From positions 1 through 64,000 of IMG/VR virus record IMGVR_UViG_3300037963_005433: 64,000 nt of DNA. One strand, written 5' to 3'. The notes beneath the pieces were generated by a model. That model saw only the letters and a program-made list of their open reading frames with translations, searched no databases and was not told where the DNA came from. Shown here piece by piece: positions 59,040 to 64,000 of this stretch. The first letter of the stretch is position 1, and each line of letters opens with the position of its first letter. The DNA is from an uncultured virus (IMG/VR IMGVR_UViG_3300037963_005433) (taxonomy: Duplodnaviria; Heunggongvirae; Uroviricota; Caudoviricetes). A program made the position numbers and the translations under genes.

Positions 59040-59064
59040 AAAAAAGCCCGCTTGGTGCGGGCTT
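59040..59064 (-). terminator. Rho-independent terminator
   Basis: AAGCCCGC/GCGGGCTT stem with T-run on the minus strand. Confidence 0.85.
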
Positions 59065-59804: not shown

Positions 59805-60059
59805 CTAGTTTTCGTGCCGAGCAATCCAATACCAANNNNNNNNNNAACAGTTAGCAGCGTTCTGATGGAAACGTTTGCTGTTGAGAAGCTTCAGCTTTTT
59901 AGCTTCAAGCTCCTCGACCTTGTCTGCGTTACCAGGAAGGATGTCATCACCATTGCAAAGCATTGATGTCTCCAGTTCATTGGCTTCGATCTGAAGCTCA
60001 ATGTCCTTCATGGTTTGCTGGTAGCACTGCATTTTGATCTGTGCGTCAGACAGATTCGT
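59805..60059 (-). CDS. Coiled-coil hypothetical protein (start uncertain; spans the N gap)
   Basis: C-terminal part of ORF 59805..60386; GGAGG precedes an in-frame ACG at 60059. Confidence 0.45.
   Translation of the reverse strand, partial: TNLSDAQIKMQCYQQTMKDIELQIEANELETSMLCNGDDILPGNADKVEELEAKKLKLLNSKRFHQNAANCXXXXWYWIARHEN
59836..59845. other. Assembly gap (10 N)
   Basis: Run of n bases. Confidence 1.
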
Positions 60060-60765
60060 TGGTGCCTCCAGCTTCTGGTACAAGTTGCCCGAGATATTCG
60101 GGTGCTTCCACTTCCAATTCATTGCTAACGAGGCGTCGTGTTCGTATCGAAAATTCTTGTATGACTTTGACTCCGTCTGGTAGTTGCTGTCCGTTCGTGT
60201 GGGCGTCGCGTATTGCATCGAGATTCGGGAGGATTTCTGTAGTTGTTTTGGGTTCCGTTCTTTCTTCAAGAACTTCTCCTGACATTGAACGTACCACGGT
60301 GTGCTTAGTGACGCACACTTCTTGCTGGATGCAGAAGGAATCTTGTTCAGAAGGTTCCCATAACTGCGGATCCGTTTTGATTTCAACTGCTAGCTCCTTG
60401 CGTTTAGATACAGTGAACTGATAGTTACGCCCATTGATCTTGTTGGTATCAAGGGGCAAAGAACGGCGCAAATACTTGACCAGTTCTTTTAGCTGCCGCA
60501 CCTGAGATTCGTGGTGCTTTTGTGCCTCCTGTAGTTTTACTTTTTCTTTTTTAGCGCGTTCCGCACTGTCTTCGTGATGGGCGAGCGCGTAGTAGATACG
60601 ATCCACCTTTTCAGACCGTAGCTTGGAACAGGCTTCCAACTCTGCCCGCGCCAAGTCTTGGGACTCAGGAGTGAGAAGAGGAAAAGAGCGTTCCAGGGCA
60701 CCATAGTGCTGGTAAAGCTGCAGGACGTTGAGCTTTTCTAGTTTAGTTTGAGTAATTTGTTCCAC
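60046..60765 (-). CDS. Siphovirus Gp157-like protein
   Basis: EKVDRI..AERAKKEKVKLQ..LKELV coil and PNLDAIRDA..G..LP.GV C-terminus. Confidence 0.72.
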   Translation of the reverse strand: MEQITQTKLEKLNVLQLYQHYGALERSFPLLTPESQDLARAELEACSKLRSEKVDRIYYALAHHEDSAERAKKEKVKLQEAQKHHESQVRQLKELVKYLRRSLPLDTNKINGRNYQFTVSKRKELAVEIKTDPQLWEPSEQDSFCIQQEVCVTKHTVVRSMSGEVLEERTEPKTTTEILPNLDAIRDAHTNGQQLPDGVKVIQEFSIRTRRLVSNELEVEAPEYLGQLVPEAGGTNESV

Positions 60766-60773
60766 GGTTCGTA

Positions 60774-60893
60774 TCAGAAAGAGGTGACGTGGGATTGAAT
60801 TCGATTCATTGCATATGCCAGCAGCCCAGCGGCTGCTGTCAAAAGAAGATCTCGAAGAATGGGAAGAGCAGAAGCGAGGATGGTCTCGAACAT
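60774..60893 (-). CDS. 39-aa hydrophobic protein MFETILASALPILRDLLLTAAAGLLAYAM... (not in ORF track)
   Basis: Read by hand; follows pseudoknot copy 2. Confidence 0.6.
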   Translation of the reverse strand: MFETILASALPILRDLLLTAAAGLLAYAMNRIQSHVTSF

Positions 60894-60913
60894 TGAAGGA
60901 ATGGTTTAGGTGT

Positions 60914-60942
60914 CCGTCAGTTTTAGGTCGTGACCAGGACCT
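60914..60942 (-). ncRNA. H-type pseudoknot leader element, copy 2
   Basis: AGGTC-CTG-GTCA-C-GACCT-AAAAC-TGAC. Confidence 0.65.
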
Positions 60943-60960
60943 GGAGTCTAAGGGGGTGTG

Positions 60961-61902
60961 TCAACCCCCCTTCTTCCAGATGTGCTTGAGCTGTTGCAGG
61001 CTGTCACCGGGATATGGGACATAGCCTGCTTCGAGCATGTTGTCGAACAGTTCCCAACTGTCATCTTCTGTAAAAGTTTCGCCCTTGCGATAGTGCCGCC
61101 AGTGACTGAGCGGTGCGTTTACACCGGACTTGGTATGGATAAGGGTCATGCGTCCCTTGGTATTGCCGTCTTCAGGCGGTGCGTACCACCAGGCAACACA
61201 CTTCTCTGGTACGTCGTTGCATTCGATCCGGATCTGAGACCGCTTGCTGATGAACTCGCGGTACTTTTCGACCCAGCTCAGGTGTTTGCAACGTGGTTTG
61301 AAGTGTGGGATCTCTTCCTTGAACGCCTGTAGATGATTGAGCTGGCGATGAAAGGACCCACATGAGCAATAAGGTTCGCCAAAACTAGCTTGCTCTTCCT
61401 GCTCTTCGTCAAAGTCACCATCCAAGTCAAGGAGCCGAGGTTTAATGTGAAACCCGTCTGGTGCAATGAGATACCCAATATCGAACTGTTCGTTCTGGAG
61501 TACGGGGAGTAAGGCATCTTTGGTATCAAAGTGGATGAGCTGATCAGCAAACCGTGCCTGGAAACGAGCGTTGGGATTGAGCCGCTCGCCTAGTGAGTGT
61601 GTGTATGACCAGCCTTTGAACAAGACATAACCGTTGTCCCGCCATGCACTGGGTCCACGATAATTAGGTCCAAGGTACGCAAAGAAGTTCGGTAGTCTGT
61701 TTGTGAACTTCGTGAATGCAGCGCAGACCTTTTCCCTGGGAAACTCTTGGCTGGTGCCGTCAGTGCGAGTGATGCAAACGTTGTCGCCAACAAGACTGAT
61801 GCCCGCAATGTCAGTGTCATCAAAGTCATCGAATGCGCGGCGTAAATTAGAACGGCAATAAATGAGAGACTGTGCCTCATTTAGTTTGGTTTTGGTTTCC
61901 AT
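60961..61902 (-). CDS. SWIM zinc-finger protein
   Basis: YCSCGSF-x-CKH (23-aa spacer); likely ATG at 61902. Confidence 0.7.
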   Translation of the reverse strand: METKTKLNEAQSLIYCRSNLRRAFDDFDDTDIAGISLVGDNVCITRTDGTSQEFPREKVCAAFTKFTNRLPNFFAYLGPNYRGPSAWRDNGYVLFKGWSYTHSLGERLNPNARFQARFADQLIHFDTKDALLPVLQNEQFDIGYLIAPDGFHIKPRLLDLDGDFDEEQEEQASFGEPYCSCGSFHRQLNHLQAFKEEIPHFKPRCKHLSWVEKYREFISKRSQIRIECNDVPEKCVAWWYAPPEDGNTKGRMTLIHTKSGVNAPLSHWRHYRKGETFTEDDSWELFDNMLEAGYVPYPGDSLQQLKHIWKKGG

Positions 61903-61959
61903 TTGAATAGTTTGAGTTTGGTAAGATGTATGTAACATCCAAACAATCTTGGATATCAC

Positions 61960-62220
61960 ATGGACAACATCAAGTACGTTTCGTTAAGTCAATTCCAGAT
62001 TGAACCAACGTTGGACGATAAGTTCTGGCTGGAGAAAGTTAAGCGATTCGTAGATGATTGTGAATCAACCTCCACATTGAAAGAAGTGGCGACCATGTTA
62101 GCCACGATCGCCACCACAAGACAGGGTGTAATTCGTGGGTTGATCCAAGACATGTTCATCTTCCAGAATGTTGCTGTCGATGAGCAGGACGTGTCCAACC
62201 CAGATGTTACTTCAAAGTGA
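61960..62220 (+). CDS. Second, divergent NblA-like protein
   Basis: PTLDDKF..V..S..LKE..L..RQ..L aligns by eye with NblA LSLEQQF..V..S..AKD..L..RE..L. Confidence 0.5.
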   Translation: MDNIKYVSLSQFQIEPTLDDKFWLEKVKRFVDDCESTSTLKEVATMLATIATTRQGVIRGLIQDMFIFQNVAVDEQDVSNPDVTSK

Positions 62221-63219
62221 GGCGTCTTCGCCAGTGGGGTTCTGCTGAGCAGGCAGGGCGGGTGCATCGATAGTGCGGTTGGCAGGGGCGATCATTAGAC
62301 CGTCCTTCATGCCGTAGCTGCCACCGAGCTTCTCAGCGTCTTGCTTGGCATGCTGGTTGATGTAATCAGCAAACAGATCCTGGAACTTCCAAGCACTCTC
62401 ACGGTTGTCATCCGGGATAGTGAGGTTGTCTAGTGATGCAATAGCTGTGTCTTGATCGCTGTACTCAGGGATGTCAAACCCTTCGATGCAGCAGATCTCG
62501 ACGTTGTTTGCACCACGCATGTCATTCACCAGAGTCGGGATAAAGACTGTGGTGGCAAAGAACTTCTCGTTAAAGGCCAGGGGTACCTCAGCGTCCAGTG
62601 CTTTGCACAGACACTTGGACATTTCTTTCTCGTACATCTTGACCTTTTCGGCCATGTCCGTGCCATTCAAACCTTTGAGGGTAAGAACGATGGGAATCTT
62701 ATGAGCGGGCACATTGTCCTTGGTCAGGATGTTGACCAGGTACTTGGTGCGAACGCTGTACTTACGCTTGTACATCTCACCTTTGGCATTCGCCAGATCA
62801 GATGCAGTCTTGTCTGCTTCAAAGAGTTCCTTGACTTCAGGATCCTCGAAGGTGCCGATGGTTTGACGCATGCCACCGGTTTCTTCAACCATCAGTGGTG
62901 AACGCAGCAGAATCTGCAGCCGAGGGATGATGAAGTTCAGTCCTTCTTCGATAGAGGTGTTGGGTGCCAAGCCAAAGGTTTGCTTGTAATCCCAAAGGAC
63001 GGAGCCCTTGTCGAAGTCAGCTTCCTTGGCAGTCCAGTTGCAGGTGTCCAGATCGGACTTGCGGATGAACCAACCACGGGTCTTGGATTTGTTCAGAGGT
63101 TGAATCGTAACGAGGTTCTGGTAGCCAGAGACAAACTCTTTGGATTGGAACATCCGGAAGGAGTCAAGGCTGCGCTTGGTGATGGATGAAGCTTTTTTCA
63201 CAGTGAGGTTCGTAGTCAT
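62212..63219 (-). CDS. 335-aa protein, candidate ssDNA-binding/annealing protein
   Basis: In the operon with SSB and Gp157; beta-rich core with flexible tail. The function is inferred from context only. Confidence 0.5.
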   Translation of the reverse strand: MTTNLTVKKASSITKRSLDSFRMFQSKEFVSGYQNLVTIQPLNKSKTRGWFIRKSDLDTCNWTAKEADFDKGSVLWDYKQTFGLAPNTSIEEGLNFIIPRLQILLRSPLMVEETGGMRQTIGTFEDPEVKELFEADKTASDLANAKGEMYKRKYSVRTKYLVNILTKDNVPAHKIPIVLTLKGLNGTDMAEKVKMYEKEMSKCLCKALDAEVPLAFNEKFFATTVFIPTLVNDMRGANNVEICCIEGFDIPEYSDQDTAIASLDNLTIPDDNRESAWKFQDLFADYINQHAKQDAEKLGGSYGMKDGLMIAPANRTIDAPALPAQQNPTGEDASL

Positions 63220-63230
63220 GAAATGAAAAG

Positions 63231-63258
63231 CGGGCAGTTTTACGTCATGCCCAGGACG
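63231..63258 (-). ncRNA. H-type pseudoknot leader element, copy 1
   Basis: CGTC-C-TGGGCA-T-GACG-TAAAAC-TGCCCG, ending 11 nt before ATG 63219. Confidence 0.72.
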
Positions 63259-63267
63259 ATTTTAGTT

Positions 63268-63363
63268 CTATCCGCCAGCAGCGAATGTAAACATTAATAA
63301 CACTGTCATTAGCATTGCTGGAAGTAGAAGCAAGACCAACAACTGCAGCTGATCAACTGTCAT
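63268..63363 (-). CDS. 31-aa single-TM peptide MTVDQLQLLVLLLLPAMLMTVLLMFTFAAGG (not in ORF track)
   Basis: TAATG overlap with the SSB stop codon. Confidence 0.6.
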   Translation of the reverse strand: MTVDQLQLLVLLLLPAMLMTVLLMFTFAAGG

Positions 63364-63998
63364 TAGAACGGAGCGTTTTCATCATCGGTCGGTGGAGGAC
63401 CGTAGGCACCAGGAAGATCCGGCAGATTCCCCCTTGCACCCACTGGTTCTTGCACCTTCCAAGGATCACTGGCAGGTTCTTGCGCAATCGCTGCTTGATG
63501 CGGAGAGCTGGGAACTTCTTGTTCCTCAGGATCACCAGTACGTCCACCCCAAAGGGATGTCACCTCCTGTCCTCCTGCCACGTTTGCTTTTGATTCGACA
63601 GGTTTTTGATCAGCAATGCCCTTGGGTGCCAAGGTCATGTTGATGAGCTGCAGCTTGGTTAGAGTGCGTTGCTCTTTGGTTTCTTTATCGGTCCACGAAT
63701 CAGTGACGATACGTGCCTCGATTGTCAGACCAGTGCCCTTCTTGGTGTAGTCAGCGATCAGCTTCGCAGGCTGGAAACGATCGTCGAAACCATTGATGGC
63801 GTAGAAGTTGAACAGGTTTGACTCTCCCTTCTTGGTGACAACAGAGAGAGTTTGGTTTGTGATCATGTGGTTTGGCGTGGTCTTGCACTGCCGTGTGTCT
63901 TCAGGATTGATGTCCTTGACACACCGACCTGCCAATACCACGTTGTTCAGGATTGGAAACTGTTCAACATCGACAGGAGTTACCACTCCACCATGCAA
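63363..63998 (-). CDS. ssb: Single-stranded DNA-binding protein (probably 5'-truncated by the window)
   Basis: NNVVLAGR, YTKKG..IEARI..WTDK..RT OB-fold motifs; acidic tail DDENAPF. Confidence 0.85.
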   Translation of the reverse strand: MHGGVVTPVDVEQFPILNNVVLAGRCVKDINPEDTRQCKTTPNHMITNQTLSVVTKKGESNLFNFYAINGFDDRFQPAKLIADYTKKGTGLTIEARIVTDSWTDKETKEQRTLTKLQLINMTLAPKGIADQKPVESKANVAGGQEVTSLWGGRTGDPEEQEVPSSPHQAAIAQEPASDPWKVQEPVGARGNLPDLPGAYGPPPTDDENAPF

Positions 63999-64000
63999 TG

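Follow-up and report, generated by a model that had tools for sequence, protein, structure and literature searches.

The window analysed here comprises 64,000 nucleotides (nt) of an uncultured virus assigned to the Caudoviricetes (IMG/VR record IMGVR_UViG_3300037963_005433), corresponding to bases 1-64000 of a virus record of 78,172 bp, and contains on its minus strand two copies of a 28-nt RNA element that folds as an H-type pseudoknot (Table 1). Copy 1 is located downstream of the gene encoding the single-stranded DNA (ssDNA)-binding protein SSB and of a small hydrophobic open reading frame (ORF), whose ATG overlaps the SSB stop codon (TAATG) and which gives no match in a Pfam scan, and it precedes the gene encoding a DUF5895 protein. 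Copy 2 lies between a gene encoding a protein of no known family and a second hydrophobic ORF, which is followed by the gene for a Gp157-like/Gam-like protein. In the numbering of copy 1 (positions 1-28), stem 1 (S1) pairs positions 1-4 with 13-16 and stem 2 (S2) pairs positions 7-11 with 23-27, and the segments that connect them are loop 1 (L1, C5 U6), loop 2 (L2, position 12) and loop 3 (L3, UAAAAC, positions 17-22). A natural variant at the L2 base of copy 1 (63247) is present in contigs from RNA libraries.

The original prediction, made from the letters of the window and its reading frames, had described pseudoknots at two minus-strand sites (63258-63231 and 60942-60914), and both strings are found exactly as quoted, with the leading A of copy 2 lying outside the fold. 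The compensatory stem changes that it reported are also present: S1 changes from CGTC/GACG to GGTC/GACC, and S2 from GGGCA/TGCCC to G-GTCA/TGAC-G, copy 2 thus forming four of the five S2 pairs (GTCA/TGAC) and retaining UAAAAC in L3. Both copies are intergenic and stand 11 and 20 nt before ATG codons, with leaders that lack a Shine-Dalgarno (SD) sequence. When the window was scanned with the consensus pattern, allowing up to three mismatches, only copies 1 and 2 matched, compared with 0.00 matches expected from 100 shuffles.

Table 1. Pseudoknots, their parts and neighbouring features in the virus record, together with the small ORF that accompanies the knot in bacterial loci.
Feature	Position	Strand	Remarks
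Pseudoknot copy 1	63258-63231	minus	28 nt; 9/9 pairs form; CGTCCTGGGCATGACGTAAAACTGCCCG
Copy 1, S1	63258-63255 with 63246-63243	minus	
Copy 1, L1	63254-63253	minus	CU
Copy 1, S2	63252-63248 with 63236-63232	minus	
Copy 1, L2	63247	minus	
Copy 1, L3	63242-63237	minus	UAAAAC
Leader between copy 1 and ATG at 63219	63220-63230	minus	11 nt, G-free, without SD
Pseudoknot copy 2 (core)	60941-60914	minus	GGTCCTGGTCACGACCTAAAACTGACGG
Leader between copy 2 and ATG at 60893	60894-60913	minus	20 nt, G-poor, without SD
Knot in record	75150-75123	minus	5 nt after stop; 22 nt before ATG
Knot in record	72756-72729	minus	6 nt after stop; 30 nt before ATG (20 if a 15-codon ORF is used)
Knot in record	72045-72018	minus	2 nt after stop; 22 nt before ATG
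Knot in record	64290-64263	minus	6 nt after stop of DNA polymerase A gene (Pfam DNA_pol_A); 18 nt before ATG of SSB
SSB gene	63363-64000, continuing to 64244 past window	minus	Pfam SSB
Hydrophobic 31-aa ORF	63268-63363	minus	TAG stop 9 nt upstream of copy 1
DUF5895 protein, 335 aa	62212-63219	minus	downstream of copy 1; Pfam PF19247, E 2.5e-11
~313-aa protein	60961-61902	minus	TGA stop 19 nt upstream of copy 2
Hydrophobic 39-aa ORF (MFETIL...)	60774-60893	minus	directly downstream of copy 2
Gp157-like/Gam-like protein	60046-60765	minus	Pfam PF05565 and phrog_253; gene after 39-aa ORF
Tiny ORF of bacterial loci (L243-L303)	~25-75 nt upstream of knot; e.g. L282:1435-1527, L249:1535-1582	plus (L282), minus (L249)	
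86-aa ORF	61960-62220	plus	occupies ~250-nt gap between two minus-strand early-operon genes; no Pfam/PHROG family
G6/C5 hairpin	60952-60970	minus	GGGGGGTTGACACACCCCC; across TGA of ~313-aa gene, 10 nt upstream of copy 2; holds TTGACA hexamer
Intrinsic terminator (GC-rich hairpin and T6)	59040-59064	minus	after cyanophage OMP-like gene, before 763-aa tail-fibre gene
Run of 10 N	59836-59845		one RNA-library contig there shorter by 9 letters

In the whole record a descriptor that fixes only L1 and AAAC, and otherwise requires pairing, detects six knots, all on the minus strand; with it the plus strand and the reversed controls are empty and shuffled genomes yield 0.2 each, and a stricter descriptor recovers five copies. 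All six are confined to 14 kb of early and replication genes, are co-oriented with these genes and are situated in gaps of 48-67 nt. Variants among them include A-U pairs that replace G7-C27 and G8-C26, and TTAAAC or CTAAAC as L3, and the copy at 72756 has seven consecutive T at its 3' end (the last core base and six more). The genes downstream encode SSB, the DUF5895 protein, small peptides and a PcfJ-like protein. The nearest GenBank phage is Synechococcus phage S-EIVl, with 74% identity across part of the region, and it possesses orthologous copies before a DUF5895 homologue (~21 nt upstream) and before a small ORF beginning MFEF... The 39-aa ORF behind copy 2 belongs to a type (MFE[ST]L..., e.g. 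MFESLF...) with homologues in dozens of related contigs, in which it is always located 18-23 nt downstream of a knot. The virus further carries a cyanophage OMP-like gene.

The element is a member of a large family with the consensus NNNC-CU-GGNNA-Y-GNNN-UAAAAC-UNNCC (28 nt). A first pattern scan of IMG/VR, in which 16 bases were fixed and six of the nine pairs left free, returned at least 118 loci, and among the matches listed, which were not selected for pairing, all nine pairs form in 88 of 118. In a second scan, in which positions 3 and 14 were freed (122 loci), T-A, A-T, C-G and G-C all occur at this pair. A scan of one genome per prokaryotic species yielded 61 further loci, of which 50 have a complete S2 and at least three of the four S1 pairs; judged by the labels of the genome records these represent the Omnitrophota, Chloroflexota, Bacillota, Acidobacteriota, Bacteroidota, Planctomycetota, Desulfobacterota, Patescibacteria and others. 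Over 302 loci (698 kb) a descriptor gives 282 matches, compared with 0 in the reversed sequence.

Covariation was evaluated in 150 distinct members, chosen for at least three of four S1 and four of five S2 pairs, and bears out the short-L1, A-rich-L3 pseudoknot of the original prediction. Double-sided changes occur at eight of the nine pairs, the compensatory cells number 221, and the observed score is reached by none of 500 shuffles. The proportion of cells that are paired (96.6%, compared with 79.0% in shuffles and 18-45% when the partner is slid) is inflated by the choice of members by pairing, which does not inflate the covariation counts or the unselected result of 88 in 118. S2 is 98.8% paired, and four of its five pairs change on both sides. 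The pair C4-G13 is present in 148 of the 150 members and is G-C in the remaining two; extra copies likewise flip near-invariant pairs, C4-G13 to G-C and both G7-C27 and G8-C26 to A-U. Positions C5, U6, A11, A19-C22 and U23 are invariant, U17 and A18 are conserved in at least 90%, and TTAAAC, CTAAAC and TGAAAC are rare variants of L3 in the wider scans. L2, on the other hand, varies freely (T77, C19, A16, G2 in the second IMG/VR scan).

The Rfam check called for in the original prediction was negative: Rfam 15 gives no family at gathering score over the window or on 20 bacterial loci, and no match to copies 1 and 2 even at E-values up to 10. A BLAST search of GenBank phages with a common cyanophage-type copy and its small ORF gave no match, and with short queries the only matches, chance hits aside, were to S-EIVl, a Moorella phage and two crAss-like phages. 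Four 11-nt core strings are not present in the searchable supplementary files of Fremin et al. 2023 (PMC10690425; files 1, 2 and 4 are not searchable), and the motif may be among the 10,006 unnamed candidates of that study. The accessible part of the Minerva preprint contains nothing on the fold. A literature search combining "bacteriophage" with "coremin", an exoribonuclease-resistant RNA (xrRNA) of eukaryotic viruses considered below, gives one unrelated paper, and the accessible portions of PMC10520033 and PMC10321173 make no mention of phages or bacteria. As far as these searches reach, therefore, the fold is uncatalogued and has apparently not been described before in phages or bacteria.

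The placement of the knot relative to genes was examined across the family. In 121 of 150 distinct instances an upstream ORF of at least 45 codons on the same strand ends within 60 nt of the knot, the first base of its stop codon falling at -7, -8 and -9 in 26, 12 and 9 cases respectively, which corresponds to a spacer of 5-7 nt in 47 of the 121. A spacer of 4 nt is seen in three cases, and closer stops are absent from these 121 instances, with the exception of three that lie inside the knot. A distance of 5-7 nt is that at which a structure survives a terminating ribosome. On the 3' side, G is nearly absent at positions +1 to +6 family-wide, and the downstream 40-mers have a mean minimum free energy (MFE) of -4.28 kcal/mol, compared with -3.83 kcal/mol in shuffles (n=202), 16% of them having an MFE of -8 or lower compared with 10% of shuffles; the value for the upstream 40 nt is -6.65. 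A naive ORF finder places an ORF start 15-39 nt downstream of the knot in 82 of 147 distinct instances, and in phages that use SD sequences the knot precedes the SD by 3-10 nt. In other cases tRNA genes follow, 2-17 nt downstream in 14 instances (12 distinct) and at only 2-4 nt in eight of them, whereas tRNAs on the upstream side are 46-94 nt from the knot, and intrinsic terminators adjoin it in bacterial loci. These tRNA and terminator contexts cannot be explained by a role in translation only. A search for a promoter at a fixed distance upstream gave no positional signal.

Among the 107 downstream proteins, 77 were scanned after near-duplicates had been dropped, and 26 of these received a Pfam name: ferritin/Dps (five), FmdB-type zinc ribbon (four), glutathione peroxidase (two; loci L066 and L078), Rrf2 (two), aldo-keto reductase with 4Fe-4S (two), and single cases of APS kinase, SSB (locus L023), primase-helicase, Rieske, YHS and others. 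On the upstream side 50 of 114 proteins were scanned and 19 were named, including Hsp20 (six), DUF932 (four), capsid (three) and CMD/AhpD-like proteins (two; L003 and L149), and a recurrent upstream protein (L006, L058) matches the C-terminal end of the catalase-peroxidases (KatG; PDB E 7.6e-18). Some phages thus possess stress and redox clusters in the order Hsp20-knot-Dps, Hsp20-knot-FmdB zinc ribbon or AhpD-like-knot-tRNA; Hsp20 is found upstream in, for example, L122, L127, L151, L095 and L223, and Dps downstream in L046, L095, L114, L223 and L268. In front of several of the dps genes, 6-7 nt from the ATG, stands a TGnTATAAT box, a sign that the transcripts may be leaderless and begin just after the knot.

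A different arrangement is observed in bacteria, where a tiny ORF with a strong SD is found at a fixed distance upstream of the knot in 31 of the 61 loci (Table 1). It encodes a peptide of 16-43 aa conforming to M-(K/L)-R-(F/Y)-M-x-(P/R)-x-V-A-H-C-x-(E/G)-G-(C/H), which belongs to no Pfam or NCBIfam family, and its stop codon is located 4 nt before the knot, overlaps positions 1-2, coincides with UGA at positions 12-14 or lies beyond the knot. The idea that this segment forms a hairpin rather than encoding a peptide was rejected, as it is the amino acids and not the pairing that are conserved across loci. An intrinsic terminator often adjoins the knot and is followed by genes for Rrf2, Fe-S aldo-keto reductase, Rieske or YHS proteins, and taken together the tiny ORF, the knot and the terminator resemble a leader-peptide attenuator of an undescribed kind. 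Tandem knots 0-5 nt apart are found in the bacterial loci L244 (639-699), L297 (1009-1063) and L270 (upstream of 684).

The closest relative of the knot is coremin (xrRNA-C), which is recorded in BNYVV (beet necrotic yellow vein virus), cucumoviruses and many other eukaryotic RNA viruses. The coremin papers of Dilweg et al. give its 20-mer as GUCCGAAGACGUUAAACUAC (PMC10520033) and describe a first hairpin (hp1) of 3-4 bp (CGUC/GACG in BNYVV) with a C-G closing pair, and natural U14A variants with a spacer starting UAAAAC (PMC6546385); in coremin the hp1 loop must be YGAD or YGNNAD and the spacer is conserved (PMC6546385, PMC10520033). Coremin needs a second hairpin (hp2) to stall Xrn1 (PMC6546385), and it also stalls scanning ribosomes (PMC10520033). 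In xrRNA-WCC, the Watson-Crick variant of coremin (Dilweg et al., PMC10321173), the hp1 loop pairs with the spacer and the spacer adenosines occupy the S1 minor groove, as in the luteoviral frameshift knots, and this RNA stimulates -1 frameshifting without a second hairpin. The bacterial exonuclease RNase J1 is stopped in vitro by a flaviviral xrRNA (PMC5760640).

The coremin 20-mer and copy 1 have in common GUCC, GACGU, AAACU and a C outside the loop. More generally, both elements are smaller than 30 nt, occur in tandem copies, have a proposed luteovirus-like triplex architecture and possess a first stem of 3-4 bp (3-5 bp were allowed in our comparison) with a C-G closing pair and a pyrimidine as the first loop base, followed on the 3' side by U(U/A)AAACU and then by bases that pair back into the loop; the full spacer U(U/A)AAACUAC is recognisable in the phage family, with positions 24-25 varying because they pair. 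As in xrRNA-WCC, the hp1 loop and spacer form an antiparallel Watson-Crick S2, of 5 bp compared with the published 3 bp. In contrast, the S2 of coremin has 2-3 bp and is partly non-canonical, whereas that of the phage knot consists of five Watson-Crick pairs with an L1 of 2 nt, and the phage loop (CUGGNNAY, 8 nt) shares with YGAD or YGNNAD the leading Y, a G and a late A, and not the length or register. The hosts also differ, being dsDNA phages and bacteria, which are without Xrn1, in the one case and eukaryotic RNA viruses in the other. Judged from these sequence features, the phage knot may work like, or at least looks like, the coremin core, while lacking two defining features of coremin, the loop sequence and hp2.

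Other known RNAs resemble the element in part. The luteoviral -1 frameshift knots of beet western yellows virus and potato leafroll virus are, as discussed in PMC10321173, likewise compact H-type knots (~28 nt) in which L1 is short and the loop that crosses the S1 minor groove is A-rich. The phage knot, in contrast, is intergenic, with a stop codon 2-19 nt upstream and no slippery heptamer, which in such a stimulator would lie 5-9 nt upstream inside an ORF continuing in the -1 frame, which argues against a stimulator of -1 programmed frameshifting. The early mRNA of T7 carries RNase III processing hairpins, and several co-oriented structured elements in the gaps of one early polycistronic operon are common to T7 and our virus, although the element here, a pseudoknot of 28 nt, is neither a long duplex nor a ribozyme. 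Theta (hepatitis delta virus-like) ribozymes were rejected as relatives, being larger and located at tRNA 3' ends, not 5' of tRNAs. In the crAss-like phage CrAssphage cr7_1 (NC_055895; L304:1372-1728) a knot with the compensatory pair A7-U27 is located inside an annotated transfer-messenger RNA (tmRNA), and ARAGORN also calls a permuted tmRNA. This annotation is doubtful, and the idea of a link with tmRNA was dropped: the predicted resume codon lies 67 nt from the knot, and the T-arm is borrowed from the neighbouring tRNA-Cys.

On the basis of this analysis we tentatively favour the view that the knot is a protein-independent mechanical barrier, or insulator, that punctuates the cistron boundaries of a long early and replication mRNA. 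The knot, from which an unstructured, G-poor leader runs to the next start codon, would fold just outside the footprint of a ribosome terminating on the upstream gene and would stop machines that travel 5' to 3', such as an RNase J-type exonuclease, RNase E scanning from the 5' end, or run-on and sliding ribosomes. The downstream cistron would thereby gain a protected 5' boundary, and its SD-less leader would be kept free of pairing with upstream sequence. Selection of the structure to stay folded as a barrier or insulator is suggested by the avoidance of the zone less than 5 nt behind stop codons, by the G-poor, unstructured 3' side, by the strict co-orientation with genes, and by the occurrence of the knot before ORFs, tRNAs and terminators alike. 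The loops are conserved in a way that suits tertiary contacts within a compact triplex knot, for which C5+.G8-C26 and A-minor triples are predicted, so that a trans-acting factor would not be needed. From the published properties of coremin we infer that bacterial enzymes or ribosomes moving 5' to 3' may be the machines that are blocked, and which of these they might be.

Several observations weigh against such a barrier. The hp2 that coremin requires is generally absent, as the downstream 40-mers fold like shuffles and no stable hairpin adjoins any of the six local copies; a tRNA or terminator adjoins the knot in a minority of instances. The local copy at 72045-72018 is only 2 nt after its stop codon. 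Copies per genome number from one to six, with a single copy in phages of 158-231 kb, so that the knot is not general punctuation. RNA-library contigs span copies 1 and 2 uninterrupted, although these contigs may include DNA and cannot show RNA ends. RNase J scores over the cut-off in three of five knot-bearing bacterial genomes compared with eight of 14 controls, a test that is limited by the incompleteness of metagenome-assembled genomes; there being no enrichment, RNase J cannot be a universal partner, and it was rejected in this role.

It is also conceivable, if rather unlikely, that the knot is a translational enhancer, the alternative offered with the original prediction, or a standby site. 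It would raise SD-less initiation 11-30 nt downstream through contact with the 30S platform or with protein S1, or simply by holding the leader open. In keeping with this are the ORF starts at 15-39 nt (82 of 147 instances), the SD-less and G-poor local leaders and the position of the SD 3-10 nt after the knot in SD-bearing phages, but the distances may only reflect the tight packing of phage genes, no complementarity to rRNA was noticed, although no search was aimed at it, and the knot also occurs 2-4 nt before tRNA genes, directly before terminators and, in bacteria, after the stop of the tiny ORF. We consider it unlikely that the knot serves the upstream cistron instead, as a 3'-end stabiliser or processing signal which, after a downstream cut by RNase P at an adjoining tRNA, by RNase E in the G-poor leader or by RNase P within L1, would cap the message against 3'-to-5' exonucleases. 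The proximity of upstream ORFs (within 60 nt in 121 of 150, with 47 at 5-7 nt) would suit this role, and cleavage by RNase P at a tRNA 2-4 nt downstream would leave the knot with a tail of 2-4 nt. The arrangement U6/G7-C27/A28 resembles tRNA positions -1/+1-72/73. In vitro, loop 1 of an H-type pseudoknot that carries a 3' RCCA is a cleavage site for RNase P (PMC12710915). Against this, no RCCA follows the phage knot, a terminator, where one follows, would make the knot superfluous, the sites are spanned by RNA-library contigs (a weak objection), and the published coremin data concern 5'-to-3' machines.

A regulatory aptamer, the loops of which would bind a small molecule, an ion or a conserved protein and so switch stress, redox or iron-sulfur genes, in bacteria together with a leader peptide, seems improbable to us. 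Its appeal lies in the recurrent neighbours (Hsp20, CMD/AhpD-like and KatG C-terminal-like proteins upstream; Dps, glutathione peroxidase, APS kinase, Rrf2, aldo-keto reductases with 4Fe-4S, Rieske and YHS proteins downstream) and in the attenuator-like sequence of tiny ORF with SD, knot and terminator and the tandem knots of L244, L297 and L270. The six downstream genes of this virus, however, have no common theme, Pfam names exist for no more than 26 of the 77 proteins scanned downstream and 19 of the 50 scanned upstream, such that the theme may reflect annotation or lineage bias, and no SD or terminator strand is contained within the knot. Both the phage element and the preQ1-I riboswitch (RF00522) are small H-type knots that have an A-rich 3' loop and in some cases a terminator or SD behind them. 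The phage element, however, has no Rfam match at E-values up to 10, is not adjacent to queuosine-related genes, and varies freely at L2, a single base, where preQ1-I-type knots hold the conserved ligand-pairing C. We regard as highly improbable an element acting at the level of transcription in the early operon, either as a partial terminator of the pseudoknot type or as an antiterminator that modifies RNA polymerase: some copies are followed by a run of U (the seven T at 72756, and several IMG/VR and bacterial cases) and the local copies lie in one 14-kb early region, but most, including both in the window, are followed by C/A-rich sequence without a U-run, and some stand directly before terminators. 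The pseudoknot in the gene 32 mRNA of T4 is the operator for the ssDNA-binding protein gp32, and the original prediction had proposed a small regulon in which SSB or the 335-aa protein couples expression of these genes to free ssDNA levels. In an operator of the T4 type the protein would nucleate on the knot, spread over the leader and repress translation when free ssDNA is scarce. The likeness consists of a knot, an unstructured leader and a phage ssDNA-binding-protein gene, which is true of one of the six copies, 18 nt before SSB, and another knot precedes SSB in L023. Five of the six local copies, however, precede unrelated genes, the leaders, of only 11-30 nt, are much shorter than in T4, and in unrelated phages with very different gene sets the same fold stands in many copies before unrelated genes, tRNAs, terminators and stress genes, and in many bacterial phyla it follows the tiny ORF. 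With neighbours so varied a regulon run by SSB, gp32-fashion, or by the 335-aa protein is unsupported, and the knot is almost certainly not an operator specific to its own ssDNA-binding-protein gene. Rfam, according to PMC10690425, has no model for the T4 gene 32 pseudoknot.

Near-perfect covariation combined with hundreds of instances and no Rfam entry is rare for an RNA of 28 nt. A broader proposal, possible in our opinion yet doubtful, is that prokaryotes and their phages own a "resistant RNA" class of this kind: a protein-free roadblock for RNase J, RNase E and ribosomes that would define stable sub-messages within operons, with a fold that DNA phages, bacteria and eukaryotic RNA viruses would have in common through descent, transfer or convergence, and with the bacterial knot at the stop of a conserved 16-aa peptide (M-K-R-F-M-x-P-R-V-A-H-C-x-E-G-C/H) acting as a ribosome-sensed switch before Rrf2, Fe-S and redox genes. 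In bacteria, the leader peptide and the knot together point to an undescribed regulatory leader. As the cultured phage S-EIVl, which grows on Synechococcus sp. PCCC-A2c, carries orthologous copies, direct testing is possible. Should the knot stop bacterial nucleases or ribosomes, prokaryotes would have their first xrRNA-type element, a plant-virus pathogenicity element would be tied to an ancient, portable fold, synthetic biology would gain a very small insulator part, and there would be an explanation for the way in which phages adjust how stable and how independent individual genes are in long early transcripts.

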